Shown here: positions 8,004 through 61,052 of the stretch, piece after piece | Numbering within the stretch: position 1 is the first letter of the stretch | How the letters are laid out: every line of letters starts with the position of its first letter | Assembly (NCBI GenBank): GCA_934130085.1 | Contig: CAKOXK010000002.1 | Coordinates: forward strand, 97,049-161,048 | Direction: 5' to 3' | Length of the DNA stretch: 64,000 nucleotides | Source: an uncultured Clostridia bacterium | GTDB taxonomy: Bacteria; Bacillota; Clostridia; TANB77; CAG-508 | Notes under the pieces: generated by a model | Databases searched by the model: none | What the model saw: the letters and a program-made list of their open reading frames with translations, nothing else | Told to the model about the DNA's origin: nothing | Program-made: the position numbers and the translations under genes

Positions 8004-9366
8004 ATTTTTCACCCCCTTCTTCTATTATTTTATCAAGATTCATATTTTTCATCATTTTCTTCATTTGAGGATTCATCTTGCCATTCTTCATTTTCTTCAT
8101 CATGTCTTGAGTCATCTCAAATGATTTCATGAATTTATTTATTTCTGAAACTTGTGTACCACTTCCATTTGCTATTCTAATTCTCCTTGAAGCATTGAGA
8201 ATTTTAGGGTTTATTCTCTCTGCATTTGTCATTGAAGAAATAATAGCTTCTATTTTTGAAAACTCATTATCATCAACCTGAACATTGTATTGACTCATTC
8301 CTGGAATCATTTTAAGTAATGATGATAAAGGTCCCATCTTCTTAACTTGCTTTATTTGAGCTAAATAGTCATTTAAATCAAGATCTTTATTTTTTTGTAA
8401 TTTCTTTTCAAGCTTTTCAGCTTCTTCCATATCAAACTTTTCTTCGGCTTGTTCGATTATTGATAAAACATCTCCCATGCCTAATATTCTTGATGCCATT
8501 CTATCAGGATGAAACTCTTCTAACTCATTAAGCTTTTCACCTGTACCAATAAATTTGATTGGCTTTCCTGTTACACTTTTTATTGATATTGCAGCACCAC
8601 CACGAGTATCACCATCAAGCTTTGTAAGAATAACTCCATCAATTCCTAAATCGGAATTAAACTTTGTTGCAATATTAACTGATTCTTGACCAATCATTGA
8701 ATCAACTACAAGTAAGATCTCATGAGGCTTTAAATTGGTTTTTAGATTCTTAAGCTCTTGCATAAGAGGTTCATCAATTTGCAGACGACCTGCTGTATCA
8801 AGAATAATAACATCATTTAATTTTGATATAGCTTGCTCTTTTGCTTGTTTTGCAATTTTCACAACATCTTTTTCATTCTCGCTAGCATAGACTGGAATTG
8901 AAAGTTCTGCACCAACTACTTGAAGTTGCTTTATAGCAGCAGGACGATAAACATCACATGCAACAAGTAATGGCTTCTTACCTTGCTTTCTAAGAAGGTT
9001 GGCAAGCTTTCCAGCAGTTGTTGTTTTACCAGAACCTTGCAAACCAACAAGCATTATAACTGTTGGTGGGTTTGGAGTAAATGCAATTTTGCTATCAGTT
9101 CCACCTAATAAATTAACAAGCTCATCTTTAACAATTTTAATAACCTGTTGACCTGGTGTAAGAGATTTTAAAACATCTTGGCCAAGAGCTTTATCATGAA
9201 TATTATTAATAAACTCTTTAACTACTTTGTAGTTTACATCAGCTTCAAGAAGTGCAAGCTTGACCTCTCTTAACATATCATTAAGATCTGATTCTGTAAT
9301 TCTAGCTTTTCCTCTAAGCTTTCTTGTAAAAGCTTGAAGCTTTTCTGATAACCCCTCAAAAGCCAT
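7990..9366 (-). CDS. ffh: Signal recognition particle protein Ffh
   Basis: 458 aa with an N-domain, the SRP GTPase motifs '[10 protein letters not shown]', 'DTAGR' and 'TKLDGD', and a Met-rich M-domain C-terminus. Confidence 0.95.
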
Positions 9367-9507
9367 CTAAAATCTCCTCCTCTGGTTTATTTAGCATTTT
9401 TCATCTTTCTTTATTCTGTTCTGATTTTGCTTATACTTTTTTTGCCCTTTATTTGAAATTTGCCTACAATCTGTTTGATTATTGTTCTGCCTTTTATTCA
9501 AATTCAC

Positions 9508-9861
9508 TTACGCAATTAAGTTAAGGTCTTTTTGAACTTCACTTAATATTTTCTCAATTTTTTTATCAGATGAAGAATCTTCAATCTTGCTTAACTTTGA
9601 AAGTATTAATTGAATAGTCTTTTCATTTTCTTGTGACTTTTTCATAATATGTAAAATCTTCTCGTACTCGAAAAGTTTTGCTTCTCCTTTCTTGATTATG
9701 TCATTCACAGCCTGCCTTGAAACATTTGTTAAATCAGCAATCTCTGAAAGAGATAAATCATCATTATAATAATAATTCAAGACCTTGTTTTGTTTATCAG
9801 TTAGAAGCTCACCATATATTTGCCACAATATACTTACCTCTATATGTTTCTCCATAATCAA
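9508..9861 (-). CDS. ylxM: UPF0122/YlxM putative helix-turn-helix protein (ffh operon leader gene)
   Basis: 117 aa containing 'LSLSEIADLTNVSRQAVNDIIKKGEAKL', a sigma-70 region-4-like HTH, located immediately upstream of ffh. Confidence 0.8.
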   Translation of the reverse strand: MIMEKHIEVSILWQIYGELLTDKQNKVLNYYYNDDLSLSEIADLTNVSRQAVNDIIKKGEAKLFEYEKILHIMKKSQENEKTIQLILSKLSKIEDSSSDKKIEKILSEVQKDLNLIA

Positions 9862-10147
9862 CTCTCCTAAAATGCTTTAAATTTTGTGCCTAAACTAATA
9901 ATTAGATTTGATACTAATTTATTTGTATTTGAGTCATACTACTCATCATAGCACACAAAAAACTAAAGCCTTATATGTAAAGCATATTTACTTTACACCT
10001 TTTTTGAAGAAAAGTCAAGAGAATTTGAGGAATTTACAGAATTTATAGAATAGAATTGCATTTGACTTTTACTTGACGATTTATTTACTTTTTTCAAATG
10101 GAATTTATATTTTTAACTTAAAACCCATTTTATTCGCATCATATTTC

Positions 10148-12533: not shown

Positions 12534-13469
12534 TTAGTTCTTTATATTCTCAATCTCTTCCTTAGATAATGAAGTAATGTCTTGAATTTCTTCTACTGAG
12601 AAATTCTTTGCTAACATTCTCTTTACAATTTCTTGTTGTTTCTTCTTTTCTCCCAATATCTGCCCCTCTTTTAGACCCTCTCTTTTTCCATCTTCTAATG
12701 CATGAGTAATCGCATTCTTTTCATCCATTATTGCTTTTTCTCTTAATTCTGCTACTCTTCTTAACTCTTCTTGCTGACTTATTTCATCTAAGTTCTGCAT
12801 TGCTTCTTTTAATTCTTTATTGGTTTCCATTGCTTTAAAAACCTCCTCTTGATTAGGATTATCCAAAAACAATACCCACTGTGCCAATTCATTATTTGGC
12901 TCTCTCTCCAGTGTTTTCTTTGCCTTCGATATTTCAATTATATAAATCTGAAACATATCTGTCAATACTAAATTTAAGCCTGTGGTCACCTCTGTTATTT
13001 TCCATTCTGTACATATATTTTCTAGTGCTTTTGTCTTCTCTAATGGAAAATCTATTATTATTATTCCAATTACTTTGTTTAAATCCTGATAAATATTTCC
13101 TTTCTGTAATTGGCTCGAGTAAATTCTGCTCCAATAATACAAGAACCTAGCTTCTGTGTCTTGGTTATCAACTAATTGTATCTCTACATCACATATTCTA
13201 CCATCTCCTAATGTTGCTTTTAAATCCAAAATTCCTAACTTTTCTTCTGGATATTTACCAAAAACGTGCCTGTCATTATCAAGTTTTATATCATTTATTT
13301 TTTCTTTTATTACTGATGATATAAGTGCTTTGGTAATTCCTTCATTTCCCTCTCTAAATAATGAATGAAACACAACATCAATTTTCGGTTTTAATAGCTT
13401 TTCTTTGTTTTCTTTTTCACCTTCATTATTATTGTTTTTCTCTTTAGTTAGATTTTGTTTTTTGACCAT
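12534..13469 (-). CDS. Rpn-family recombination-promoting nuclease / putative transposase (PD-(D/E)XK, YhgA-like)
   Basis: 311 aa with 'IDVVFHSLF', 'LDLKATLGDGRICDVEIQ' and a C-terminal 'EGLKEGQILGEKKKQQEIVKRMLAKNFSVEEI' typical of the Rpn/TIGR01784 family. It borders the variable pilin-like locus. Confidence 0.7.
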   Translation of the reverse strand: MVKKQNLTKEKNNNNEGEKENKEKLLKPKIDVVFHSLFREGNEGITKALISSVIKEKINDIKLDNDRHVFGKYPEEKLGILDLKATLGDGRICDVEIQLVDNQDTEARFLYYWSRIYSSQLQKGNIYQDLNKVIGIIIIDFPLEKTKALENICTEWKITEVTTGLNLVLTDMFQIYIIEISKAKKTLEREPNNELAQWVLFLDNPNQEEVFKAMETNKELKEAMQNLDEISQQEELRRVAELREKAIMDEKNAITHALEDGKREGLKEGQILGEKKKQQEIVKRMLAKNFSVEEIQDITSLSKEEIENIKN

Positions 13470-14059
13470 AAAATACTATCTCCTTTTAATATATTTCTAC
13501 TTGCACAATCCGACTTAAAATATTTCAAAGTATACTGACATTACTCCTGCTCAAATTTATTTCAACTAATTTTATGGGATTCAATATTTAAGATAATTTT
13601 TTATTGTTTAAAACATATATAGAAAGTATATGATGAAATAAAAAAATTGAATAGCAGAGTGTATATAGAATGTACCTCCTTCCCAATCTTTTATTTAAAA
13701 TTACTTTTTTCTTCGCTTGAAAATTTTTCGATTTAATAATTTCTAGATTTATAATTCTTAGATTTAACAATTTCTAGATCTAACAATTTGAATAAATCAA
13801 TTAATTTGATAACACTAAAAAGTTTTAATATAACTAATTTCATCTTGAAATCTTGAAATTCTGAAATAATTTAAGCACAAAATGTACTAAATAGATGGTC
13901 TATTTATAACATATTTTGTGTTCAACGTAAACATTTTATGGTAATCTTTTTGAACTTTCGATTGACAAAATTCGACTTTATTTTTATTAACATATATTTA
14001 TTTACGCATTTAAATAAGTTGTCTAATACAAGTAAAATACAAGTTTATTAGGATACTTT

Positions 14060-14262
14060 TTAATTAATCTTTTAGATTAATTAAAAATTTATAAAAAATA
14101 AATACCATGAAAGCCTAGTAAAATCAACGCACAAAGCTATAGTATAAAAATCGTGTAATAAGAAAAAAAATTTAAAAATTTTTAAGTCAAAACTGTGATT
14201 TATTTACTGTAAGTAAGAGTAACGCGATTTTTACTTTTTAATTAATCTAAAAGCTTAATAAA
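14060..14262. promoter_or_regulatory. Invertible DNA element Inv1 (25-bp IRs flanking a ~153-bp segment), in FLIPPED orientation relative to Inv2-4
   Basis: Left IR 'ttaattaatcttttagattaattaa' (14060-14084) and right IR 'ttaattaatctaaaagcttaataaa' (14238-14262). The internal segment 14085-14237 is the reverse complement of the segments of Inv2, Inv3 and Inv4 (for example 'catgaaagcctagtaaaatcaacgc' versus 'gcgttgattttgcaaggctttcatg'). Confidence 0.8.
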
Positions 14263-14300
14263 AATTTACCTTCAAACTTCAAAAAGAGCCATATCATTTT

Positions 14301-14348
14301 GTACTGAAACCAAAAAACATCTAATCTTTAGTTTCAGTACATTTTATT
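14301..14348 (+). terminator. Plus-strand intrinsic terminator directly outside the right IR
   Basis: 10-bp perfect stem 'gtactgaaac...gtttcagtac' followed by 'attttatt'. It is part of a ~185-bp direct repeat shared with 15707-15890. Confidence 0.6.
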
Positions 14349-14521
14349 GATATGACTCCTTTTTTAATATAAAAATTATAAGCGTTTTACCTATTAAGAA
14401 ACTTATATTCAGTCTGTTATTTAAACATTACCTAACATTAATCTTAGACATACCAGTTAATTTGCATTTTAAAATTAATGTTACCTAATAAAAAATACGT
14501 TTTACTTTATTATTTACATTT

Positions 14522-15478
14522 CTATTTGTGTACAAGTCTTACAACACTTGATGAAACATGGTTTCCACATGTTACATACATAGAAGTTGAGGTCGCGCGA
14601 ACAAGATTTACACGCGCTTGTTGCCCTCCGGAATTACCACCTGTTCCCCACAATGAGGTTGCTCCTGATATAGACCATGCAATATTTCCATTAACATTAT
14701 TGCCAAGTCCAAAGCAAATATATAATTCACCAGGAATAGTAGTAATATACTGATTTGCCGATCCCACCCCTTGAATAGAAGTTATTGATCCTTCGGTTTT
14801 TCCATTATTATATCCATCTTTATATGAAGCACTATCGGTATTTACTCTACCATCAGCATCACTTACTCCCTTGTTATATGCGCCAGCTCCAGAAACATAT
14901 CCTTCTCCATTATGATACCCAGCTGGAATTTTAACATTTTCACTTCCAGTAGTAGATGCTGTCCACGCACCATTATTCTTCATGGTACCTGTTAGTCCTG
15001 TTTCAGATGCATTTGAAAATGTTGCTCCTTGAATTACTTGACTCTCTGTTGCATCTCCTGTTGCTCTCATTGCTTCTAGCTCCGCTACTTGCTGCTGTAG
15101 ATTCTCTATCTGTTTCTTTAATTTTTCTACCTCATCACTGCTTTCTGATGAACTACCTCCTCCTGTTGTTGAATTTCCACCAGTACTACCTCCTGAACTT
15201 GAACCTCCGTTTGAGGTAGCAGCTATCGCTTGCGTAATTTGATTCAATGTAAGTTGCTCTTGTAAGCTTGAATTTTGATATTGTTGTCCAGCATTTTTAG
15301 CCTGACCAACTATTCCTTTATCATCTAATGCAAGTTTTATTGTAATTCCTGAAAGAATTAGTAAAACAATAATTGTTATTACAAGTGATAATATAGTTAC
15401 ACCGGTTTCTCTCATTTCACGTTTTTTATAATGTTTTTGCTTTATGTTATTTACTTTTCTCATTCTTAATTTCTCCAT
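14522..15478 (-). CDS. Pilin-like surface protein (type-IV-pilin-like N-terminal hydrophobic segment lacking Glu5, G/S-rich linker, coiled coil, divergent C-terminal domain)
   Basis: The N-terminus is basic leader + 'ETG|VTILSLVITIIVLLILSGITIKLALDDKGIVGQAKNAG'. The first ~210 aa are shared with the next gene. The C-terminus ends 'VTCGNHVSSSVVRLVHK'. Inv2 lies 50 bp upstream. Confidence 0.65.
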   Translation of the reverse strand: MEKLRMRKVNNIKQKHYKKREMRETGVTILSLVITIIVLLILSGITIKLALDDKGIVGQAKNAGQQYQNSSLQEQLTLNQITQAIAATSNGGSSSGGSTGGNSTTGGGSSSESSDEVEKLKKQIENLQQQVAELEAMRATGDATESQVIQGATFSNASETGLTGTMKNNGAWTASTTGSENVKIPAGYHNGEGYVSGAGAYNKGVSDADGRVNTDSASYKDGYNNGKTEGSITSIQGVGSANQYITTIPGELYICFGLGNNVNGNIAWSISGATSLWGTGGNSGGQQARVNLVRATSTSMYVTCGNHVSSSVVRLVHK

Positions 15479-15528
15479 TATAATCCCTAAAAGCCTTAAA
15501 TTTATTGGTTTACACCATTTATCTAGTT

Positions 15529-15731
15529 TTAATTAAGCTTTTAGATTAATTAAAAAATGAAAATTAAAGAATTCCTACTCTAAGTAAGAATTGCCCTGAT
15601 TTTCTATTCTAAAAGCTTTCGTTTTTTTCTTATTACACAAATTTTACGAAAGTATAAAAAGCGTTGATTTTGCAAGGCTTTCATGTTATTTTACTTATAT
15701 AAAATTTTAATTAATCTAAAAGCTTAATAAA
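15529..15731. promoter_or_regulatory. Invertible DNA element Inv2 (orientation X)
   Basis: IR-A 'ttaattaagcttttagattaattaa' (15529-15553) and IR-B 'ttaattaatctaaaagcttaataaa' (15707-15731) are inverted repeats of each other. The segment carries conserved 'TTGATT-N17-TATTTT' on the plus strand and 'GTGTAATAAG' on the minus strand. Confidence 0.8.
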
Positions 15732-15770
15732 AAATTTACCTTCATACTTCAAAAAGAGCCATATCATTTT

Positions 15771-15818
15771 GTACTGAAACTAAAAAAAATCTAATTTTTA
15801 GTTTCAGTACATTTTATT
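15771..15818 (+). terminator. Plus-strand intrinsic terminator outside IR-B (copy of the 14301 hairpin)
   Basis: 'gtactgaaac-N20-gtttcagtac' followed by 'attttatt'. Confidence 0.6.
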
Positions 15819-15923
15819 GATATGACTCCTTTTTTTAATATAAAAATTATAAGCGTTTTACCTATTAAGAAACTTATATTATCTATTCTTGCTTCTCACT
15901 GTACTTATCGTTTTTTGTTTCTT

Positions 15924-16925
15924 CTAATTCATAATCAAATATGCATGCATTGGTGTTGACCAGCTAATTGTATTATCGTAACGTGTTGCTCCATCATCAG
16001 TCCATAATCTTGCTCTCATTGTTGCAGCTAATGACGTTGTTAGTATCCCGCTTTTTGCATCATAGCTTTTGTTGAATGTTGCTCTATAATAAGCTCCTAC
16101 TCTCTTTTCTGCATTACATGTTCCACTTACGTTTTCTTTTGATATCGAGTTTTCTGCAAGCTCTACTAGGAAATTACTTGAACTTAATTTTGTATAGTCA
16201 ATTCCAAGGGCTTTGCATAGTGATACTATATTAAATGACGTTCCTGTACCTAAATCAACGAATTTTCCAAGTCCAAAATCACTTGGAGATTCTTTTACTG
16301 CTTTTTTACCTGCCTCAACACCGGAATTGTATGCTCCTGATAAATCTACATATCCGTTTCCATTGTGATAACCTTCAGGTACTGTTACCTTTCCGTTACC
16401 AGTAGTTGACGTAGTCCACGCTCCATTATTTTTCATTGTACCAGTTAGTCCTGATTCAGAAGAGTTAGAAAAAGTGGCCCCTTGAATTACTTGATCTACT
16501 GTTGCTCCTCCTGTTGCCTGTGTTGCTTCTAATTCTGTTACTTGTTGTTGCAACTCTTCAATCTGCTTTTTTAGTCTGTTAACTTCATCACTATTTCCTG
16601 ATGAACTTCCTCCTGATTCTGAACCACTTCCGCTACCTCCTGAACCTGTAATTCCATTTGAAGCATCAGCTATTGCTTGTGTAGCTTGATTCAATGCTAC
16701 TTGCTCCTGTACACTAGCATTTTGATATTTTAATCCTGCATTTTTAGACTGACCAACTATTCCTTTATCATCTAATGCAAGTTTTATTGTAATTCCTGAA
16801 AGAATTAGTAAAACAATAATTGTTATTACAAGTGATAAAATCGTAACACCTTCTTCTTTCATTGCACGTTTTCTATAATATTCTTTACTTATGTTTTTCA
16901 TTGTTCTCATTTTTAAACCCTCCAT
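15924..16925 (-). CDS. Pilin-like surface protein, paralog of 14522..15478 with a different C-terminal domain
   Basis: N-terminus 'KEEG|VTILSLVITIIVLLILSGITIKLALDDKGIVGQSKNAG'. The G/S linker, 'LKKQIEELQQQVTELEA' and 'QVIQGATFSNSSESGLTGTMKNNGAWT' are shared with the neighbouring gene, and the last ~110 aa are unrelated. It follows the large paralog at 17009..19231 after an 83-bp gap. Confidence 0.65.
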   Translation of the reverse strand: MEGLKMRTMKNISKEYYRKRAMKEEGVTILSLVITIIVLLILSGITIKLALDDKGIVGQSKNAGLKYQNASVQEQVALNQATQAIADASNGITGSGGSGSGSESGGSSSGNSDEVNRLKKQIEELQQQVTELEATQATGGATVDQVIQGATFSNSSESGLTGTMKNNGAWTTSTTGNGKVTVPEGYHNGNGYVDLSGAYNSGVEAGKKAVKESPSDFGLGKFVDLGTGTSFNIVSLCKALGIDYTKLSSSNFLVELAENSISKENVSGTCNAEKRVGAYYRATFNKSYDAKSGILTTSLAATMRARLWTDDGATRYDNTISWSTPMHAYLIMN

Positions 16926-17008
16926 TAGAATCCCCTAAAAGCATTAATTTTATTAGTTTTACATCTCTTATACTTTTTTAGTTAATTTTATACAGCCATT
17001 TTGTTTCT

Positions 17009-19231
17009 CTACTTTTCAACTTGCAAAACTGGACGAAGCCCACGGCACGAAGAGTCGTCGCCGGTGCTAGAGTAGAACACACCGCTCGATGTAACGGAGC
17101 CACTGCTTGAAACATAGCGTAAGTCGAAGCCTGCGCGGTACCAAACCGCACCAACGCAGCGAGACGAAAGCCAAAATTCAGCGCCAGCGCTGATATTACT
17201 TGTATTTCTGTTTGAACCTCCCCAATAATTATTGTATATAACTTTTAACCAAGGGTTACTTGACTTTTTATCGTTATTATATCTTTCGTAAGCATAGTTT
17301 CCTTTCTCTTCTGTTGAAAGCCATGTATTTATTCCAGTTGTATTCATGTTATATGATGTTATTTTAGCGTCAGAATAGCCTTTGCTTGCTCCTTTTGTTT
17401 TATCAATGTTCTCATATTGTGTAAATAGTGTTGGTGCATAGCTATTCCATGTACTTGTTATTTTATTTGGCGCACTTGTATCATCTGCATTTGCTGTCCA
17501 TAAGTTGCCAAAGTTACTTAATTTACTCTCATCCATGAAGTCTTCCCATTTTGCATCACGTGCTAACACTACCTTTACTTTTTTGGTTTGTCCGTTCTTT
17601 AGCTTTATTTCTGTTAAATTTCCATATAAATTATTACAGATTGTATCTAAAGCTAATACTCCGTTATTATATGCTGGTGCACCTGTTAATCTTACCTGTA
17701 ATTTTGTTGCTCTGTCTGCAATGTAATAGTCATACTTGCTTGTATCAAACGAACCTGATTGTAAATCATATCCTCCATCTGTTAGTTTTGACCATGTCAT
17801 ATCTGATTCTACTGTTGGCAAACCTGAATTTACTTTATTTACTGACCTTATATCTTTTCCAAGCAAAGCTGCTATTGAATCTGCTTTTACATATCCATGT
17901 GCTTCGCTTCCACTCTTATTCTTATAAAATCTATCTACATTTACTGCTGCACCTACTGATGTGTCTGAAACACTGTCAGCTGAAACTGTTATTACTGGAC
18001 GTAATGCGCAACTTCCACTTTGATTACTTCCTGTCGTATTATAGTTTTGATTTGTTTGAAACATTGTATATGTTGAATATGCTCCATCCGTTCTTGCAAA
18101 AGCAAATCGATAGTACTCATAAGATAAGTCTTCCGAATAAGGTGTTTTACCATCTGATCCTTGATTCCAGGTATAAGAATTCATTCTTGTTGCAAGCCAA
18201 TAATTGTTTCCTGTATTCATCATACTTACTGTTGATTTATTTGTTCTGTTTGGATTTGTAATTGTTGGTGATGTATTTTCAGCTAACATTTGTGTATTAC
18301 TTGATTGAGATGCTGATGTATTTGTTATATCAATATACTCACTTATTTGGTCTGTTGAATATCCATTGTTTGCTGTATCTAATTGATTTATTATTGGCTC
18401 TATCTTTTTATTGTTTTGGTAAGCTCTTGATACAGAATATGTTATATTATAAAAATCTTCTGCATTTACACTTCTTGCTGATAATACTTTTTTGCCGTTA
18501 ATCTCTAGATTTCCATATAACTTTGAGCAGATTTCGTTTAGTGCTTTTACTCCATTTGTATAGCCGTTAATTCCTGATATTGAAACCTCAAAACTTGTGT
18601 TTGCGTTGGCTATTAAGTTTACTGTTCCATCTTCATTTGTACTTAGTACTTTCCATCCTAAATCTTCTGTTTCAATCTCTCCAGCTTCTACCATTGCTAC
18701 ACCTGGTACATCTTGATTATCACTGTTTAATATTTGTCTTAAATGCCTATTTACTCCCTTGCCATCTGTTTTACCAATGTATGTGAATGTACCATCATCT
18801 AGATTTACCATGTAATTGTAACCTTTATATGCTACCTGTGCATAACCATCTCCATTATTTAAAAAATCTTCAAGACCATCATTTCCTACATTTGAACTCA
18901 AATAATCCGCAAGTCTTCCGGTATTTCCTTCTTGTTCCTTTTGAATGTCTATACCTGCTAAATACATGCTCATCTCTTCTTCAGCAGAAGATTTGTCTGA
19001 AACTGCTGTCGCATTTTTTGCTTTTCCAAGAATGCCATCATTGCTTACCATACTTATTGTTATACCTGCAAGAATTAGTAAAATTATAATTGTAATTACT
19101 AAAGCAATAATTGTAATTCCATCTTCACTTAATTTTCTTCTCATTACTTTATAATCTTCTAATTTATTTTTACTATTCAGTTTTGTCTTATTATTTTCAA
19201 CAAATTTTAAATCTTCTTTTAAACTTCCCAT
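17009..19231 (-). CDS. Large pilin-like surface protein, paralog 1 (pilin-like N-terminus + two C-type-lectin-fold-like domains; DGR-target-like C-terminus)
   Basis: 740 aa with N-terminus 'SEDG|ITIIALVITIIILLILAGITISMVSNDGILGKAKNA' and internal 'NYWLATR...GSCALRPVITV'. The C-terminal 'EFWLSSRC...SSCRGLRPVLQVEK' resembles Fib_succ_major/DUF1566/FGE-type CLec domains. Overall ~90% identical to the paralogs at 19625 and 22020. Confidence 0.7.
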   Translation of the reverse strand: MGSLKEDLKFVENNKTKLNSKNKLEDYKVMRRKLSEDGITIIALVITIIILLILAGITISMVSNDGILGKAKNATAVSDKSSAEEEMSMYLAGIDIQKEQEGNTGRLADYLSSNVGNDGLEDFLNNGDGYAQVAYKGYNYMVNLDDGTFTYIGKTDGKGVNRHLRQILNSDNQDVPGVAMVEAGEIETEDLGWKVLSTNEDGTVNLIANANTSFEVSISGINGYTNGVKALNEICSKLYGNLEINGKKVLSARSVNAEDFYNITYSVSRAYQNNKKIEPIINQLDTANNGYSTDQISEYIDITNTSASQSSNTQMLAENTSPTITNPNRTNKSTVSMMNTGNNYWLATRMNSYTWNQGSDGKTPYSEDLSYEYYRFAFARTDGAYSTYTMFQTNQNYNTTGSNQSGSCALRPVITVSADSVSDTSVGAAVNVDRFYKNKSGSEAHGYVKADSIAALLGKDIRSVNKVNSGLPTVESDMTWSKLTDGGYDLQSGSFDTSKYDYYIADRATKLQVRLTGAPAYNNGVLALDTICNNLYGNLTEIKLKNGQTKKVKVVLARDAKWEDFMDESKLSNFGNLWTANADDTSAPNKITSTWNSYAPTLFTQYENIDKTKGASKGYSDAKITSYNMNTTGINTWLSTEEKGNYAYERYNNDKKSSNPWLKVIYNNYWGGSNRNTSNISAGAEFWLSSRCVGAVWYRAGFDLRYVSSSGSVTSSGVFYSSTGDDSSCRGLRPVLQVEK
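17012..17180 (-). other. Putative DGR variable region (VR) at the 3' end of paralog 1
   Basis: The sense strand is adenine-depleted and GC-rich (~55% versus ~30% locally). Differences from the two paralogous copies are confined to codons with pattern [N][N]C/T (for example ggt/aat/ttt, cgc/atc/aac, ggc/aac/cac) and to third-position A/N changes. Confidence 0.75.
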
Positions 19232-19299
19232 TTTGATGTTTTCTCCTTTGAAATCTTGTAAAGCGTTACAATTACTGTATTTAGATTGTTTTTTTAATT

Positions 19300-19501
19300 T
19301 TAATTAAGCTTATAGATTAATTAAAAAAATAAAAAAGATGTTTTCTTACTCTCAGTAGAGAAAAATAAAGTTTTGTATTTTTTCTTTAACCTATTATCCT
19401 TATTACGCAATTTTTACACTTGAATCATAAGCGTTGATTTTACAAGGTTTTCATGTTATTTTTATCTTACTAGATTTTAATTAATCTATAAGCTTAATAA
19501 A
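19300..19501. promoter_or_regulatory. Invertible DNA element Inv3 (orientation X)
   Basis: IR-A 'ttaattaagcttatagattaattaa' (19300-19324) and IR-B 'ttaattaatctataagcttaataaa' (19477-19501). The segment is homologous and co-oriented with Inv2 and Inv4. It lies 69 bp upstream of the paralog-1 start. Confidence 0.8.
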
Positions 19502-19557
19502 AAAATATATTCATTATTAACTTTTTTTACTCTCTCTTCATAAATTTTTATATAATT

Positions 19558-19602
19558 ACACAGTATAATCAATTAAATATTGATTATACTGTGTTTTTTA
19601 TT
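19558..19602 (+). terminator. Plus-strand intrinsic terminator outside IR-B
   Basis: 16-bp stem 'acacagtataatcaat/attgattatactgtgt' with loop 'taaat' followed by 'tttttatt'. It sits 23 nt beyond the stop of paralog 2. Confidence 0.65.
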
Positions 19603-19624
19603 AAATTTCTTTAGATTCTTTTTT

Positions 19625-21880
19625 CTATTTAGCAACTTGTAGGACTGGACGAAGCCCACGGCACGAAGAGAGGACGTCGGTGGTAGAAAGGAACACATAG
19701 TCCGCGGTAATAGAGCCACTGCTTGAAACACAGCGTAAGAGGAAGTTAGCGATGCTCCAACGCGCATTAACGCAGCGAGACGAAAGCCAAAATTCAGCGC
19801 CAGCGCTGATATTACTTGTATTTCTGTTTGCTCCACCACCCCAACAAGCATTGTATATAACTTTTAACCAAGGATTACTTGATTTTTTATCGTTATTATA
19901 TCTTTCGTAAGCATAGTTTCCTTTTTGGTCTGTTGAAAGCCAATTGCTTGCGCCACTTGTGCTCATATTATATGATGTTATTTTTGCATCTGAATATCCT
20001 TTGCTTGCTCCTTTTGTTTTATCAATGTTCTCATATTGTGTAAATAGTGTTGGTGCATAGCTATTCCATGTTGATGTTATTTTATTTGGCGCACTTTTAT
20101 CATCTGCATTTGTTGTCCATAAGTTGCCAAAGTTACTTAATTTACTTTCATCTATGAAATCTTCCCATTTTGCATCACGTGCTAACACTACCTTTACTTT
20201 TTTGGTTTGTCCGTTCTTTAACTTTATTTCTGTTAAATTTCCATATAAATTATTACAGATTGTATCTAAAGCTAAAACTCCATTATTATATGCTGGTGCT
20301 CCTGTTAATCTTACCTGTAATTTTGTTGCTCTATCTGCTATATAGTAATCATATTTACTTGTATCAAATGAGCCTGATTGTAAATCATATCCGCCATCTG
20401 TTAGTTTTGACCATGTCATGTCTGATTCTACTGTTGGCAAACCTGAATTTACTTTATTTACTGACTTTATATCTTTTCCAAGTAATGTTGCTATTGAATC
20501 TGCTTTTACATATCCATGTGCTTCGCTTCCACTCTTAGTCTTATAGAATCTATCTACATTTACTGTTGCACCTACAGATGTGTCTGATACACTGTCTGCT
20601 GAAACTGTTATTACTGGACGTAATGAACAGCTTCCACTTCCATTAGAACCTGATGTTGCATAGTTCTGTCCTACTGTAAATAATGTATACGACGACCTTG
20701 CTCCATCTGTCCTTGCATAACCTAATTGGTAAAAATCTCTTGATAGCTCCTCTGAATATGGTGTTTTTCCATCTGACCCGCTATTCCAATCATAATATGC
20801 AGATCTTGTTGCAAGCCAATAATTGTTTCCTGTATTCATCATGCTTACTGTTGATTTATTTGTTCTGTTTAGATTTGTAATTGTTGGTGATGTATTTGCT
20901 GCTAGCATTTGTGTGTTACTTGATTGAGAGGCTGATGTATTTGCTATATCAATATAATCACTTATTTGGTCTGTTGAGAAACCATGATTTGCTGTATCTT
21001 TTTGATTTATTATTGGTTCTATCTTTCTATTGTTTTGGTAAGCTCTTGATACAGAATATGTTACATTATAAAAGTCTTCCGCATTTACACTTCTTGCTGA
21101 TAATACTTTCTTTCCATTAATCTCTAGGTTTCCATATAACTTTGAGCAAATTTCATTTAGTGCTTTTACACCATTTGTATAGCCATTAATTCCTGATATT
21201 GAAACTTCAAATCCTGTATTGGTATTTGCTATTAGGTTGACTGTTCCATCTTCATTTGTACTTAGTACTTTCCAGCCTAAGTCCTCTGTTTCAATCTCTC
21301 CTGCTTCTACCATTGCAATTCCTGGTACATCTTGATTATCATTACTTAGTACTTGCTTTATATGTCTGTTTACTCCTTTGCCATCGGTTTTTCCTATATA
21401 TGTGAATGTTCCATCATCTAGATTTACCATGTAATTGTGACCTTTATACGCTACTTGAGCATATCCATCTCCATTATTTAAGAAGTCTTCAACTTCGCCA
21501 TTCCCTAAATCATCTTGTATATAATCAGCCAATCTTTTATTTTCATCTTCTGCTTTTGAAACCTCTAAACTTGCTAAGTACATACTCATTTCATCCTCGG
21601 CTGATGCCTTTTCTGAAACTACTACCGCGTTTTTTGCCTTTCCAAGAATTCCATCATTGCTTACCATACTTATTGTTATACCTGCTAAAACTAATAAGAC
21701 AATAATTGTAACTACTAAAGCTATTATTGTTATTCCTGCTTGTTTTAATTTATAGTTTTTCAATTTATACTTTTTAAATTTTAATTCATTTATAGAATTT
21801 TTCATACACTCGTTTTTACTTAATTTTAAGCTTTTTTCATCATACCTCATTTTTGCTTTTTCTCCTTTAAAATCTCTCAA
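19625..21880 (-). CDS. Large pilin-like surface protein, paralog 2
   Basis: 751 aa with N-terminus 'KQAG|ITIIALVVTIIVLLVLAGITISMVSNDGILGKAKNA'. Near-identical to paralogs 1 and 3 except the N-terminal leader, a patch around residues 355-410 and the C-terminal VR. Confidence 0.7.
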   Translation of the reverse strand: MRDFKGEKAKMRYDEKSLKLSKNECMKNSINELKFKKYKLKNYKLKQAGITIIALVVTIIVLLVLAGITISMVSNDGILGKAKNAVVVSEKASAEDEMSMYLASLEVSKAEDENKRLADYIQDDLGNGEVEDFLNNGDGYAQVAYKGHNYMVNLDDGTFTYIGKTDGKGVNRHIKQVLSNDNQDVPGIAMVEAGEIETEDLGWKVLSTNEDGTVNLIANTNTGFEVSISGINGYTNGVKALNEICSKLYGNLEINGKKVLSARSVNAEDFYNVTYSVSRAYQNNRKIEPIINQKDTANHGFSTDQISDYIDIANTSASQSSNTQMLAANTSPTITNLNRTNKSTVSMMNTGNNYWLATRSAYYDWNSGSDGKTPYSEELSRDFYQLGYARTDGARSSYTLFTVGQNYATSGSNGSGSCSLRPVITVSADSVSDTSVGATVNVDRFYKTKSGSEAHGYVKADSIATLLGKDIKSVNKVNSGLPTVESDMTWSKLTDGGYDLQSGSFDTSKYDYYIADRATKLQVRLTGAPAYNNGVLALDTICNNLYGNLTEIKLKNGQTKKVKVVLARDAKWEDFIDESKLSNFGNLWTTNADDKSAPNKITSTWNSYAPTLFTQYENIDKTKGASKGYSDAKITSYNMSTSGASNWLSTDQKGNYAYERYNNDKKSSNPWLKVIYNACWGGGANRNTSNISAGAEFWLSSRCVNARWSIANFLLRCVSSSGSITADYVFLSTTDVLSSCRGLRPVLQVAK
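19628..19796 (-). other. Putative DGR variable region at the 3' end of paralog 2
   Basis: Same A-depleted GC-rich block. It retains AAY-type codons (aat, aac, aac) exactly where the other two copies carry substituted codons. Confidence 0.75.
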
Positions 21881-21918
21881 AGCATTGATACACCTGCGTT
21901 CACATCACTTTTTACTTT

Positions 21919-21943
21919 TTAATTAATCTTTTAGATTAATTAA
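21919..21943. repeat. Solo inverted-repeat site (A'-type) between paralog 3 and paralog 2; no partner IR, no invertible segment
   Basis: 'ttaattaatcttttagattaattaa', identical to the left IR of Inv1, lies 39 bp upstream of the paralog-2 start. The downstream 'aaactattttattgatatgtctttt' resembles the tail of the 185-bp repeat. Confidence 0.7.
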
Positions 21944-22019: not shown

Positions 22020-24329
22020 TTATTTAACAACTTGCAAGACTGGACGAAGCCTACGGCACGAAGAGTCGACGCCGGTGCCAGAGTGGAACACACAGTCCGT
22101 TATAATGGATCCACTGCTCGAAACAAAGCGTAAGATGAAGTGCGCGTTGTACCAATCCGCAAAAACGCAGCGAGACGAAAGACAAAAGTCAGCGCCAGCG
22201 CTGATATTACTTGTATTCCTGTTTGCTCCACCACCCCAATAAGCATTGTATATAACTTTTAACCAAGGATTACTTGATTTTTTATCGTTATTATATTTTT
22301 CGTAAGCATAGTTTCCTTTTTGGTCTGTTGAAAGCCAATTGTTTGTGCCACTTGTGCTCATATTATATGATGTTATTTTTGCGTCTGAATATCCTTTGCT
22401 TGCTCCTTTTGTTTTATCAATGTTCTCATATTGTGTAAATAGTGTTGGTGCACAGCTATTCCCTGTTACTGTTATTTTATTTGGCGCACTTGTATCATCT
22501 GCATTTGTTGTCCATAAGTTGCCAAAGTTACTTAATTTACTTAATTTACTTTCATCCATGAAATCTTCCCATTTTGCATCACGTGCTAACACTACCTTTA
22601 CTTTTTTGGTTTGTCCGTTTGCTAACTTTATTTCTGTTAAATTTCCATATAAATTATTACAGATTGTATCTAACGCTAAAACTCCATTATTATATGCTGG
22701 AGCACCTGTTAATCTTACCTGTAATTTTGTTGCTCTATCTGCTATATAGTAACCATATTTATTTGTATCAAATGAGCCTGATTGTAAATCATATCCGCCA
22801 TCTGTTAGTTTTGACCATGTCATATCTGATTCTACTGTTGGCAAACCTGAATTTACTTTATTTACTGACCTTATATCTTTTCCAAGTAAAGCTGCTATTG
22901 AATCTGCTTTTACATGTCCATGTGCTTCGCTTCCACTCTTAGTCTTATAGAATCTATCTACATTTACTGTTGCACCTTCAGATGTGTCTGAAACACTGTC
23001 AGCAGAAACTGTTATTACTGGACGTAGTGAACAATTTGCACTTGCATTATTACCTGTTGTATTATAATTTGCGTTCGTATTAAACACCGTAGATGCAGAA
23101 TATGCTCCATCAGTTCTTGCAAAAGCTAATTGATAGGATTCATTTGACAACTCTTCAGAATATGGTGTTTTTCCATCGGTTCCATGATCCCAACCACAAG
23201 ATGCAGATCTTGTTGCAAGCCAATAATTGTTTCCTGTATTCATCATATCTATTGTTGATTTGTTTGTTCTGTTTAGATTTGTAATTGTTGGTGACGCATT
23301 TGCTGCTAGCATGTGTGTGTTACTTGATTGTGCTCCTGATGTATTTGCTATATCAATATAATCACTTATTTGGTCTGTTGAGAAACCATGATTTGCTGTA
23401 TCTTTTTGATTTATTATTGGCTCTATCTTTTTATTATTTTTATAGGCTCTTGATACAGAATATGTTACATTATAAAAGTCTTCCGCATTTACACTTCTTG
23501 CTGAAAGTACTTTCTTTCCATTAATCTCTAGACTTCCATATAACTTTGAGCAGATTTCATTTAGTGCCTTTACACCATTTGTATAGCCATTAATTCCTGA
23601 TATTGAAACTTCAAATCCTGTATTTGTATTTGCTATTAGGTTGACTGTTCCATCTTCATTTGTACTTAGTACTTTCCAGCCTAAGTCCTCTGTTTCAATC
23701 TCTCCTGCTTCTACCATTGCAATTCCTGGTACATCTTGATTATCATTACTTAGTACTTGCTTTATATGTCTGTTTACTCCTTTGCCATCGGTTTTTCCTA
23801 TATATGTGAATGTTCCATCATCTAGATTTACCATGTAATTGTGACCTTTATATGCTACCTGTGCATAACCATCTCCATTATTTAAAAAATCTTCAAGACC
23901 ATCATTTCCTATATTTGCACTTAAATAGTCAGCAAGTCTTCCTGTATTTCCTTCTTGTTCTCTTTGAATGTCTATACCTGCTAAATACATACTCATTTCT
24001 TCTTCAGCAGAAGATTTGTCTGAAACTGCTACAGCATTTTTTGCTTTTCTAAGAATTCCATCATTGCTTACCATACTTATTGTTATACCTGCTAAAACCA
24101 ATAAGACAATAATTGTAACTACTAAAGCTATTATTGTTATTCCTGCTTGAGTAATTTTATATTTTCTTAATTTGCATTTATTTATTTGATTGCTGTTACT
24201 AATTTTCTTATTTTCATTGTCCCTGTTTTTCATTTTTAATCTCATTCCTTCCTTGCCTCCGCTATCGCTAAGGCACAAATCCTTATTAAATCTAGAGTAT
24301 CTCATTTTTAATCTCCGTATAATGCGCAT
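22020..24329 (-). CDS. Large pilin-like surface protein, paralog 3 (first gene of the array)
   Basis: 769 aa with a long basic leader, then 'TQAG|ITIIALVVTIIVLLVLAGITISMVSNDGILRKAKNA'. It has a conventional AT-rich upstream region shared divergently with the RHH gene at 24719. Confidence 0.7.
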   Translation of the reverse strand: MRIIRRLKMRYSRFNKDLCLSDSGGKEGMRLKMKNRDNENKKISNSNQINKCKLRKYKITQAGITIIALVVTIIVLLVLAGITISMVSNDGILRKAKNAVAVSDKSSAEEEMSMYLAGIDIQREQEGNTGRLADYLSANIGNDGLEDFLNNGDGYAQVAYKGHNYMVNLDDGTFTYIGKTDGKGVNRHIKQVLSNDNQDVPGIAMVEAGEIETEDLGWKVLSTNEDGTVNLIANTNTGFEVSISGINGYTNGVKALNEICSKLYGSLEINGKKVLSARSVNAEDFYNVTYSVSRAYKNNKKIEPIINQKDTANHGFSTDQISDYIDIANTSGAQSSNTHMLAANASPTITNLNRTNKSTIDMMNTGNNYWLATRSASCGWDHGTDGKTPYSEELSNESYQLAFARTDGAYSASTVFNTNANYNTTGNNASANCSLRPVITVSADSVSDTSEGATVNVDRFYKTKSGSEAHGHVKADSIAALLGKDIRSVNKVNSGLPTVESDMTWSKLTDGGYDLQSGSFDTNKYGYYIADRATKLQVRLTGAPAYNNGVLALDTICNNLYGNLTEIKLANGQTKKVKVVLARDAKWEDFMDESKLSKLSNFGNLWTTNADDTSAPNKITVTGNSCAPTLFTQYENIDKTKGASKGYSDAKITSYNMSTSGTNNWLSTDQKGNYAYEKYNNDKKSSNPWLKVIYNAYWGGGANRNTSNISAGADFCLSSRCVFADWYNAHFILRFVSSSGSIITDCVFHSGTGVDSSCRRLRPVLQVVK
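22023..22190 (-). other. Putative DGR variable region at the 3' end of paralog 3
   Basis: Same A-depleted GC-rich block with the third set of codon variants (ttt, gat, aac, cac, atc, ttt...). Confidence 0.75.
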
Positions 24330-24718
24330 ATACCATTATACGAACTCCTTTCTTACAAATTTTGCTTTTTTGTTATAATATTTTTATATGCTCTGCAAAC
24401 TATTTTCTATTCTTTAATTTTCATTGATTCAATATTGATTGATATCTTTTTTATTAAAATTTGTCTTATTTTTATGTATTTTCAACATTTTTTCGTTTCT
24501 TTTTTGTTCGTTATATTACAATTTAGTAAAATAAGAAAAAAATTTTTTGTCGTTTTTTCAAATCGTTTGCATTCATTTTTCCTTGCAAAATCAATAATTT
24601 CTTATAACTCAGTTTAATATTTATCATACTATTTTTGTTTTTGCAAGCACTTTTAGGTGCATATTTATTTTTAATTTAGGTGTAAAATAATTACAAATTC
24701 TACCAGGAGGTGATAAGT

Positions 24719-24922
24719 ATGGATAAATTAAATATTCCTAAAAATCAAAGTGGTGTAAGTAAAACTCTTAGATTGCCAGAGGATATTGTTCAAGATGTGC
24801 AACATCTTTCTGAAATGAAGAACCTTTCTTTCAACAAAATTGTTATTATATTGCTTTCTTTTAGTCTTCATAATCTAGATGAAGTTGATAGATCAGTACT
24901 TGACAAGTTTAGAAAAAATTAA
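24719..24922 (+). CDS. Small ribbon-helix-helix-like putative DNA-binding protein, divergent from the pilin-like array
   Basis: ATG at 24719, 8 nt after AGGAGG; 67 aa. 'KTLRLPEDIVQDVQHLSEMKNLSFNKIVIILLSF' resembles an RHH beta-strand plus two helices (CopG/Arc-like). Confidence 0.5.
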   Translation: MDKLNIPKNQSGVSKTLRLPEDIVQDVQHLSEMKNLSFNKIVIILLSFSLHNLDEVDRSVLDKFRKN

Positions 24923-57431: not shown

Positions 57432-57590
57432 AGTAAATCCTCCTAAAAATTACTAATAAGATTATTACCAACTTTTAGGAGGTTATACAATTAATTAATT
57501 TTATTTCTAGACTTTTCCCTTATTTTGTATTAAAATAAAGACTATATTTTAAATATAAATTTTTAATAAAATGTAGAAAGTGAATGTATT

Positions 57591-58220
57591 ATGGTTTCTA
57601 AAAATAAAGCCTATTTAATTTATCAAAAATTACATGAAGCATATCCAAATTCAAAATGCAGCCTCGATTTTCAAACTCCGTTTGAGATGCTGGTAGCTGT
57701 TTGTTTATCTGCTCAATGCACTGATGCACGTGTAAATATCGTGACTAAAGACCTGTTTAAAAAATATCATACACCAAAAGATTTTGCCGAAGCTCCTTTA
57801 TCTGATATAGAAAAAATGATTCATTCTTGTGGTTTTTATAAAAATAAGGCTAAAAATCTTAAAGCTGCTGGAATGAAAATTCAAAAAGATTTTAATGGAG
57901 TAGTTCCAAATTCATTTGATGAATTACTTTTAATTCCTGGGGTTGGAAGAAAAAGTGCCAATGTTATTATGCTTGAAGCATTTGACAATCCTCAAGGAAT
58001 TGCTGTTGACACTCATTGTAAACGTTTAGCTAATAGATTGGGACTTTCACATGAAAGCAATCCATCAAAAATTGAACAAGATTTGTTAAAAGAGTTTCCA
58101 AAAAGCAATTGGAAAAATATTAACCACTTATTTATAGACCATGGTAGAGCAATTTGTCATTCGAAAAATCCAAATTGCAAAGATTGTGTATTAAAAGATA
58201 TTTGTGATTATAACCTATAA
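57591..58220 (+). CDS. nth: Endonuclease III
   Basis: 209 aa with the HhH-GPD 'LIPGVGRKSANVI' and the 4Fe-4S cluster 'CHSKNPNCKDCVLKDIC'. Confidence 0.92.
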   Translation: MVSKNKAYLIYQKLHEAYPNSKCSLDFQTPFEMLVAVCLSAQCTDARVNIVTKDLFKKYHTPKDFAEAPLSDIEKMIHSCGFYKNKAKNLKAAGMKIQKDFNGVVPNSFDELLLIPGVGRKSANVIMLEAFDNPQGIAVDTHCKRLANRLGLSHESNPSKIEQDLLKEFPKSNWKNINHLFIDHGRAICHSKNPNCKDCVLKDICDYNL

Positions 58221-60420: not shown

Positions 60421-60623
60421 TTAATTAAGCTTTTAGATTAATTAAAAAATAAAAATCAGGGCTTCCTTACTCTCTGTAAGTTTTGCTCTGATTTTTAATT
60501 TTTATTTACTTTATAAAAAGTTTATTACACAATTTTTACACAGGCTGCGTAATCATTGATTTTACAAGGCTTTCGTGATATTTTAGCATTGTTAAATTTT
60601 AATTAATCTAAAAGCTTAATAAA
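60421..60623. promoter_or_regulatory. Invertible DNA element Inv4 (orientation X), upstream of the LRR pilin-like gene
   Basis: IR-A 'ttaattaagcttttagattaattaa' (60421-60445) and IR-B 'ttaattaatctaaaagcttaataaa' (60599-60623). The segment is homologous and co-oriented with Inv2 and Inv3. It contains a strong bidirectional hairpin 'aaaaatcagggc...gctctgattttt'. Confidence 0.8.
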
Positions 60624-60726
60624 AAAGTTGATAATCTTGTTTCTAGACTTTTCCCTTATTTTGTATTAAAATAAAGACTGTATTTTAAATATAATTTTTT
60701 AATAAAATGTAGAAAGTGAATGTATT

Positions 60727-60927
60727 ATGGTTTCTAAAAATAAGGCCTATTTAATTTATCAAACATTACATGAAGCATATCCAAATTCAAAATGCAGCCT
60801 CGATTTTCAAACTCCATTTGAAATGCTGGTAGCTGTTTCTTTTTCTGCTCAATGCCCTGATGCACGTGTAAATATCATGACTAAAATATCATACACCAAA
60901 AGATTTTTCCTAAGCTCCTTTATCTGA
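60727..60927 (+). pseudogene. Truncated duplicate of the nth 5' region (part of a ~340-bp duplication 60641-60976 of 57505-57868)
   Basis: 'MVSKNKAYLIYQTLHEAYPNSKCSLDFQTPFEMLVAV' is ~95% identical to the nth N-terminus, including its upstream leader. A 28-bp internal deletion and loss of homology after 60976 truncate the copy. Confidence 0.75.
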
Positions 60928-61052
60928 TATAGAAAAAATGATTCATTCTTGTGGCTTTTATAAAAATAAAGCTAAGAATTATTAATATTAAAGTACAAAA
61001 AAGAACCTGCCTTTTTATATGACAGGTTCTTTCTTAGCATTTTTCACTTAAA

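Follow-up and report, generated by a model that had tools for sequence, protein, structure and literature searches.

A 64,000-nt stretch of DNA from an uncultured Clostridia bacterium (contig CAKOXK010000002.1; the whole stretch is referred to below as the window) holds four homologous cassettes of 202-203 bp, beginning at 14060, 15529, 19300 and 60421, and one solo site at 21919. The cassettes, Inv1 to Inv4 (Inv1 is also designated W_Inv1), are each closed by a pair of 25-bp inverted repeats (IRs). They raise the question of whether they are promoter switches turned over by recombination at these repeats, as an earlier note made from the letters of the sequence proposed, or elements of another kind. 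Our analysis favors a family of homologous invertible promoter cassettes (an inverton family) that would be run by a recombinase encoded elsewhere, and we place the probability of this reading at roughly 0.55.

Cassettes and their 25-bp sites

The pattern TTAATTAA-N9-TTAATTAA, with at most two mismatches allowed, matched 11 times against 1.31 matches expected, an approximately 9-fold enrichment; 0 of 100 shuffles reached 11. Nine of the 11 matches belong to the feature itself (14060/14238, 15529/15707, 19300/19477, 60421/60599 and the solo site at 21919). A profile built from 14 cassettes, the four of the window and others from related contigs, recovered exactly four cassettes in the 64-kb window, with E values of 1e-38 to 1e-47 and no other match. 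In view of the site enrichment, the interior alignments and the profile matches, the cassette family is real and far beyond chance, and the proposed inventory of four cassettes and a solo site on common 25-bp IRs is confirmed by the pattern count and the profile search. In the four IR pairs of the window the 25-bp repeats lie 153 bp apart, with a constant centre-to-centre spacing of 178 bp. Cassette length is 202-204 bp in 13 of the 14 cassettes from the window and related contigs.

The sites have the form TTAATTAAKCT-NNN-AGMTTAATWAA, that is, palindromic arms of 11 bp around a 3-nt asymmetric centre, which reads TTT on the left and AAA on the right. The nine feature matches agree with the outline given previously, of two TTAATTAA halves around nine bases; the 9-bp asymmetric core assigned to it is better described as the 11-3-11 arrangement. 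The mean pairwise identity of the IRs is 0.94-0.96 in the four window cassettes and 0.92 in the 14 cassettes, and that of the spacers is 0.35-0.39 and 0.60-0.65, respectively. Two interior elements are also conserved: a promoter block (0.88 in the window four, 0.85 in the 14) and a CTTATTAC box (0.80 and 0.88), the two boxes that had been noticed before. The centre triplet is equal in both partner sites of every cassette (14/14). Two independent variants of the centre are concerted: both partners of Inv3 carry the one (TAT/ATA), and both partners of the cassette at 15201 of the related contig L021 carry the other (TTA/TAA). The arms differ freely, with partners mismatched at positions 3, 9 and 23 in 11, 6 and 5 of the 14 cassettes, respectively. 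A matching centre between freely differing arms is as expected of a strand-exchange region, and neither an RNA stem nor paired operators would predict it. By our own rough estimate, two concerted centre pairs would arise under independence with a probability of about 5e-5. The strong conservation of the IRs against a diverged interior, together with the identity of the centre triplets, supports the earlier suggestion that the IRs are recombination sites.

We also considered that the IRs act in RNA, forming a stem over a long distance in transcripts that read through the array and serving there, for example, in processing or stability. The covariation of the partner centres would suit such a stem, and each site can form a small AU hairpin. 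Yet the arms are mismatched between partners in most cassettes, with no compensation at position 3 in the 11 cassettes that differ there, a long-range stem does not need sites that are themselves palindromic, and the terminators on both sides make transcripts spanning the IRs unlikely. We regard this explanation as barely credible, the least probable of those considered.

All comparative data come from related loci that were fetched by exact-protein look-ups against contigs; in what follows, names of the form L0xx and Lxx_nnnn denote contigs and cassettes of these gut-metagenome loci. At least 12 further cassettes were found there. L008, which shares part of its gene order with the window near the Rpn gene (described below) and rpe, has four cassettes, L019/L020 have five, and L021 has three and a solo site. 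L022-24, syntenic with the kinase side of the window, have one solo site, and L029-35 hold further copies. Cassettes of the same system are thus carried on human-gut metagenome contigs from Hadza and other cohorts.

Past recombination at the sites

Recombination at these sites has happened, as three comparisons indicate. The interior of Inv1 can be aligned to those of Inv2-4 in reverse-complement form only, and the alignment then covers every base between the two IRs. The reversal reported earlier thus holds from end to end; its description as an exact reverse complement does not, the identity being 58-64%. The flanks of Inv1 are the leader of the Rpn gene on one side and, on the other, a terminator flank shared with Inv2; neither is the 5' untranslated region (5'UTR) of a surface-protein gene. 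In the second case, the interior of L19_1632 (L019 1632-1819) is 92% identical to that of its neighbor L19_3271 but reversed, with homologous 5'UTR flanks, and its promoter block abuts the UTR of a 384-aa gene. The outer arms of L19_1632 retain the pattern of the unflipped neighbor, and therefore only the interior was turned. Inv1 has diverged further than any other cassette, so it must have flipped independently of L19_1632. The breakpoints of both flips, judged against the paralogues, lie inside the IRs.

The third comparison is between the solo site and a cassette allele, L19_7310 (L019 7310-7512). Both flanks are shared, and the solo allele is shorter by exactly 178 bp, corresponding to the interior and one IR. 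This precise difference bears out the earlier reading of the solo site as a deleted switch. A second solo site, at 17855-17879 of L021, is followed 180 bp on by remains of a cassette's promoter half (18060-18165), upstream of a 391-aa HTH_3 gene; the two may be a disrupted cassette.

The sites are near-palindromic, and IR_L and IR_R also match as direct repeats at 20-22 of 25 positions. This property is taken up below, where the evidence against switching is weighed.

The putative promoter module and the genes beside it

In a common orientation, with the gene on the left and on the minus strand, each cassette locus reads as follows: the gene; its 5'UTR, conserved and some 65 nt long, with a ribosome-binding site; IR_L; a hairpin preceded by an A run and followed by a T run; a first variable spacer; the CTTATTAC box, which is invariant; a second variable spacer; the block GTTGATTTTRCAAGGnTTTCATGnTATTTT; about 14 nt; and IR_R. 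The block can be parsed as a promoter of the extended -10 type, TTGATT-N14-TGnTATTTT, with TTGATT as the -35 element, a 17-nt spacer, TG at -15/-14 and TATTTT as the -10 element. The TTG of the -35 element, the TG and the TAnnnT of the -10 element are retained in 14/14 cassettes. On this conservation and on its position we infer that the block is a promoter. The 14-nt motif TTGATTTTGCAAGG has five matches in place of 0.19 expected, and the fifth copy, which has no IRs, faces the first gene of the array (22020-24329), the sole array gene with neither a cassette nor a solo site. This arrangement is a reason to read the block as a promoter. A divergent open reading frame (ORF) of 67-70 aa just beyond this copy (24710-24922), of ribbon-helix-helix-like appearance, was considered and set aside, having no Pfam match.

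The second box (CTTATTACRC, CTTATTAC) was considered as a promoter facing the opposite way and was rejected: neither a conserved -35 element nor a valid extended -10 goes with it, and its transcripts would run straight into the hairpin. The box may instead be a site for an accessory protein. The cassette hairpin reaches -15 to -22 kcal/mol in most cassettes and is weaker (-5 to -10) in Inv1-3 of the window. It is flanked by A and T runs and is more stable on the strand of the promoter, and a few of its pairs have changed in a compensatory manner. A plus-strand intrinsic terminator had been placed outside every right-hand IR. We found a strong hairpin there at Inv1-3 and none at Inv4 (z = 0.4), and the plus-strand type is clear only at Inv3. 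At Inv1 and Inv2 the outer hairpin is bidirectional, with the greater stability on the gene strand, and these hairpins are the 3' terminators of the paralogous genes for the 318-aa and 333-aa proteins. The coordinates of these features and of the adjoining genes are collected in Table 1.

Table 1. Cassettes, sites and neighboring features, in positions of the 64,000-nt window
Feature	Coordinates	Strand	Remarks
Inv1	14060-14262	-	IRs 14060-14084 and 14238-14262; interior reversed relative to Inv2-4; putative promoter box 14099-14127 on the minus strand, towards the Rpn gene
Inv1 hairpin	14184-14236		Degenerate
Inv2	15529-15731	+	IRs 15529-15553 and 15707-15731; hairpin 15559-15604; CTTATTAC box 15626-15647
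Inv2 putative promoter	15664-15692		Directed away from gene 14522-15478
Inv3	19300-19501	+	IRs 19300-19324 and 19477-19501; private centre TAT/ATA in both; hairpin 19329-19376; CTTATTAC box 19396-19417
Inv3 putative promoter	19434-19462		Directed away from operon 17009-19231 + 15924-16925
Inv4	60421-60623	+	IRs 60421-60445 and 60599-60623; strong hairpin 60450-60497, -20.7 kcal/mol
Inv4 putative promoter	60556-60584		Directed away from BspA-type leucine-rich-repeat (LRR) operon 58362-60351
Solo site	21919-21943		Bordered by the 5'UTR of gene 19625-21880 on one side and by the 3' flank of gene 22020-24329 on the other
Surface-protein gene behind Inv2	14522-15478	-	318 aa; N-terminal hydrophobic helix
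Putative operon behind Inv3	15924-19231	-	Encodes a 740-aa protein, two segments of which are hypervariable and C-type-lectin-like, and a 333-aa paralogue of the 318-aa protein
Paralogue behind the solo site	19625-21880	-	751 aa; no promoter motif upstream
Two BspA-type LRR genes behind Inv4	58362-60351	-	294 and 367 aa
Hypervariable segments, first set	17009-17208, 19625-19824, 22021-22217		
Hypervariable segments, second set	17862-18107, 20481-20760, 22885-23164		
Rpn-family PD-(D/E)XK nuclease / putative transposase gene and leader	12534-14059	-	Gene 12534-13469; PF12784, TIGR01784
Fifth copy of promoter motif TTGATTTTGCAAGG	24581-24594	-	No IRs; faces the first array gene 22020-24329, about 250 bp upstream
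Terminator hairpin outside the right IR of Inv1	14286-14358		Bidirectional
Homologous outer hairpins	~15756-15828; 19558-19594		Inv2; Inv3 (plus-strand type)

Inv2, Inv3 and Inv4 lie 50, 68 and 69 bp, respectively, from the starts of the genes behind them. The 50-70 bp distance to 'pilin-like' genes that had been reported is thus correct as to the distance, and the pilin-like designation is without family-model support. An N-terminal hydrophobic helix is common to all the controlled proteins, and it has no Glu at position +5. No Pfam or NCBIfam match to a prepilin-type N-terminal cleavage/methylation motif was obtained at E <= 0.01 in the window proteins scanned, and the label of type IV pilin-like proteins is thus not supported. 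A further ORF of 698 aa, at 61870-63966, has the same N-terminal helix and a C-terminus (...HIGFRVTLI) typical of the variable domains of lectin/FGE-like proteins. Its upstream region lies past the end of the window, and a further cassette is possible there. Genes of the SpoVA, SipL and Spo0A types and a G+C content of 30% suggest a spore-forming member of the Clostridia. An Rfam search returned three tRNAs and nothing else.

The proteins of 740-770 aa have hundreds of near-unique relatives. The three large paralogues of the window have two hypervariable segments each, and these segments are 82-84% identical to one another. Variable regions like those of a diversity-generating retroelement (DGR) had been reported for this locus. 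The window contains no template repeat, Avd or reverse transcriptase, and its variable segments match only each other. A DGR pair of bAvd and reverse transcriptase was seen only in a sister lineage (L009-L018), where it lies 2.5 kb downstream of the homologous gene (L009). The sister lineage has no cassettes. Its homologous 710-aa gene is preceded, about 210 bp upstream, by a (CA)n tract (L009 445-480), which in complete copies comprises 15, 16, 17 or 18 units depending on the assembly; many contigs end inside the tract. Because the tract of this homologue is variable in length, the gene family seems to be under contingency control, and of more than one kind. L025, from a more distant relative, has a gene of the sigma-70 family (r2/r4) directly before the homologous surface gene (9184-9882) and no cassette, which hints that a dedicated sigma factor may read the promoters of the family. 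In the window, the 751-aa gene behind the solo site is probably silent, given that no promoter motif lies upstream of it.

The 5' promoter-proximal part of nth (endonuclease III) is present twice, at 57565-57838 and 60701-60960, with 91% identity and a frameshift in the copy. The duplicates bracket the LRR operon and Inv4, which may therefore have been inserted or rearranged together, in one piece.

Inv1 does not precede a pilin-like gene. It lies 590 bp from a gene of the Rpn nuclease family, which the earlier note did not mention. The 590-bp leader of this gene is 88% conserved between paralogous loci and contains 4.3 copies of a 16-bp tandem repeat (13722-13789). In 4/4 loci seen, the cassette promoter is directed into the Rpn leader, and the direction in Inv1 relative to this leader is the same as in the Rpn-adjacent cassettes L8_2049 and L19_3271. 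Members of the 90% cluster of the Rpn protein in related strains are often truncated, to 231, 152 or 98 aa, which makes the gene unlikely as the invertase.

The Rpn gene also bears on whether the cassettes are miniature inverted-repeat transposable elements (MITEs) or similar small mobile cassettes with an outward promoter, mobilized in trans (perhaps by the Rpn 'putative transposase') and inserted either way round. Multicopy units of a constant length of about 203 bp with 25-bp terminal inverted repeats have the look of such elements, Rpn/PDDEXK_2 genes are embedded in three of the arrays, and the nth 5'-end duplication brackets the LRR operon with Inv4. However, all of the at least 16 copies stand beside the 5'UTR of the family or the Rpn leader, with none elsewhere in the 64-kb window or the scanned loci, and no target-site duplication is visible in the flanks. 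The flanks are moreover homologous, so the copies would have spread by duplication of larger units. In L19_1632 only the interior was turned between unflipped outer arms, the 'empty' allele keeps one whole site, unlike the empty site of a MITE, and many related strains have a truncated Rpn gene. In light of these observations, mobile elements are an improbable explanation.

A more far-reaching proposal is that the sites form a recombination network, in which distant cassettes activate solo genes, promoters toggle between neighbors and, in its boldest form, the Rpn nuclease is the invertase. A solo gene could be activated when the outer IR of a distant cassette recombines with its solo site, and a cassette between a surface gene and an Rpn gene would toggle one promoter between both. 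The Rpn PD-(D/E)XK nuclease could itself act on TTAATTAAKCT-NNN-AGMTTAATTAA sites, as an invertase that is neither of the tyrosine nor of the serine type. We consider this network very improbable, and the capture of promoters by solo sites is offered as a prediction only.

Proposed switching and kindred systems

The inverton reading that we favor may be set out as follows. Each cassette would be an insulated promoter module, with a terminator-like hairpin at one end and an outward promoter at the other, held between inverted 25-bp sites. Strand exchange at the centre, by a recombinase whose gene lies beyond the window, would invert the 153-bp interior; judged solely from the arm-spacer-arm shape of the site, a tyrosine recombinase would be the likelier type. 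As assembled, Inv2-4 have the hairpin facing the gene and the promoter directed away from it, and the gene would be OFF. After a flip, the promoter would abut the conserved 5'UTR of about 65 nt, and the gene would be ON. The genes so controlled would encode paralogous surface proteins that share an N-terminal helix; some of these have hypervariable lectin-like ends, and two are of the BspA-type LRR class. Beside the Rpn genes the same promoter would drive the nuclease gene, and solo sites would mark promoterless silent genes that have lost the interior. The anatomy of the cassettes, the conservation of the sites, the concerted changes of the centre, the two past flips and the single precise 178-bp difference can be read from the sequences; the activity of the promoter, the ON/OFF assignment, the recombinase and present-day switching are what we infer. 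Flipping in silico did not create any ORF of at least 30 aa across the new junctions.

Several observations weigh against this reading, above all against switching at the present day. No orientation difference was seen between independent assemblies at about seven orthologous cassettes, each compared in 2-7 assemblies, consensus assemblies being blind to minority orientations. Inv1 and Inv2 are present, identical and in the same orientation, in L008 (9208-9410 and 7739), and Inv1 can thus not be taken as direct evidence of inversion, as had been claimed. The orientations in L019 and L020 agree, as do those of the cassettes of the 429/425-aa and 372/370-aa genes between strains. The cassette of the 384/388-aa gene is in the ON orientation in three assemblies of one strain and four of a strain that is about 96% identical. 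Both flipped cassettes (Inv1 and L19_1632) are evolutionarily fixed. No match to PF00589, PF00239 or PF07508 was found among the 30 window ORFs scanned, nor any NCBIfam recombinase match in the 10 scanned with that collection. None of the other window ORFs, which were matched by synteny to Pfam-annotated loci, corresponds to a recombinase, and no tyrosine or serine recombinase is among the listed genes of about 190 kb of related loci. The earlier statement that the window has no recombinase gene is in keeping with these searches, the ORFs beyond the 30 being covered by synteny only. The promoter block scores 8/12 against the plain consensus and was missed by a generic consensus scan, in which promoter-like matches in the region were not above chance. 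Finally, with IR_L and IR_R as quasi-direct repeats, rare repeat-mediated events could have yielded the deletion and the flips with no dedicated enzyme. A Logan contig that ends exactly at an IR of Inv4 was examined as evidence of orientation and discarded as uninformative, since repeated 31-mers break assemblies in any case.

These points would be accommodated if the cassettes were fixed promoter or insulator modules (with the palindromes kept, for instance, as paired operators of a dimeric DNA-binding protein whose looping silences the promoter) or dead switches, and the flips and solo sites rare, old, repeat-mediated events. The constant orientation across assemblies, the fixation of both flipped cassettes across strains and the outcome of the recombinase search among the 30 ORFs all agree with such modules. 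So do the 11-3-11 palindrome, which is a typical shape for an operator, the constant 178-bp spacing of the centres, and the match of 20-22 in 25 as direct repeats, which permits deletion by slippage. Operators, however, do not explain the mirrored identity of the centres in all 14 cassettes with two concerted changes (the rough estimate of about 5e-5 given above). They also give no reason for flips that end exactly inside the sites, and a promoter aimed away from every adjacent gene into a terminator serves no evident purpose unless it can be turned. We thus hold fixed modules or dead switches to be unlikely, while according them appreciable weight, and retain the inverton reading as the best explanation.

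The distribution of orientations can be placed within this inverton reading. All gene-adjacent cassettes of the window, and all but the one of the L19_1632 type elsewhere, point the promoter away from the gene, which fits an OFF-biased contingency family. The exception, the cassette of the 384/388-aa gene (L032 1795-1981, L033-L035; L019 1632-1819), has a 15-bp deletion after the -10 element. In the second strain (L032) it also has a C to T change in the otherwise invariant CT-NNN-AG of the gene-proximal IR. Judging from these lesions, it is probably a locked switch and a candidate for a natural locked-ON allele.

Beyond the related gut contigs, the lineage is absent from the genome, JGI metagenome and viral collections that were scanned. 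The genome-contig collection gave only six single chance matches to the IR, in unrelated genomes, the JGI metagenome-contig collection 0 complete cassettes and 0 confirmed relatives of the Rpn gene, and the viral-contig collection three chance matches only. Exact look-ups of the 318-aa protein, the 740-aa protein and P0022 returned no match. The IR sequence was not found in the searchable literature, nor in the examined supplements of the hCom2 inverton catalogue.

Among known systems, the design appears closest to the multi-locus invertible promoters of Bacteroides and, within the Clostridia, to the RecV switches. In Bacteroides fragilis, the invertible promoters of the capsular polysaccharides are run by a global invertase, Mpi, at IRs with the core ARACGTWCGT. 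As here, several homologous promoter segments of about 200 bp with the same IRs gate surface loci, and the recombinase is not adjacent. In contrast to that system, the IR is unrelated (ARACGTWCGT vs TTAATTAAKCT-NNN-AG...), the host is a Firmicute and the putative promoter is of the sigma-A type. The assembled gene-adjacent copies here would be OFF in all but one case, no mpi-like serine invertase or match to the resolvase family was found in the 30 window ORFs scanned, and it is unproven that both orientations coexist in a population. The inverton groups described in PMC11892184 are of the same general type as the Bacteroides multi-locus promoters.

The RecV switches of C. difficile (cwpV, flgB, cmrRST and pdcB) are served in trans by a tyrosine recombinase (PMC9286219, for example). 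They share with the present cassettes a host in the Clostridia and short segments upstream of surface or signalling genes. In cwpV an intrinsic terminator inside the switch contributes to the OFF state, and the hairpin within our cassettes would act in a comparable way. Unlike the RecV switches, which are mutually non-homologous and have different IRs, the cassettes described here are paralogous and share their site, promoter and hairpin; the 30 window ORFs scanned include no homologue of recV. The fimS element of E. coli (FimB/FimE) likewise has its promoter in a short invertible element before an adhesin operon, the direction setting ON or OFF. It differs as a single 314-bp locus with 9-bp IRs and adjacent recombinase genes, as opposed to several loci with 25-bp sites and no adjacent recombinase. 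The vpma, vsa and vsp loci of Mycoplasma (Xer1, HvsR) resemble the window in their array of paralogous surface genes with a conserved 5'UTR containing a recombination site, in their promoterless silent genes, to which the gene at the solo site may be compared, and in array compositions that are very different between strains. There one promoter is moved among opposed genes by large inversions, with the recombinase adjacent, whereas the genes here are co-oriented and most have a cassette of their own.

Families of homologous invertons that an invertase serves in trans are familiar from gut bacteria. The present cassettes open no new category; they are a probable inverton family whose activity is unproven. 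Should this reading be true, the family supplies a compact 25-bp site (11-3-11), an insulated promoter cassette, and natural candidates for 'locked ON' and 'deleted' alleles. If the cassettes flip, an uncultured lineage of human-gut Clostridia would combine on/off choice among paralogous adhesin-like genes with retroelement hypervariation of the same genes.

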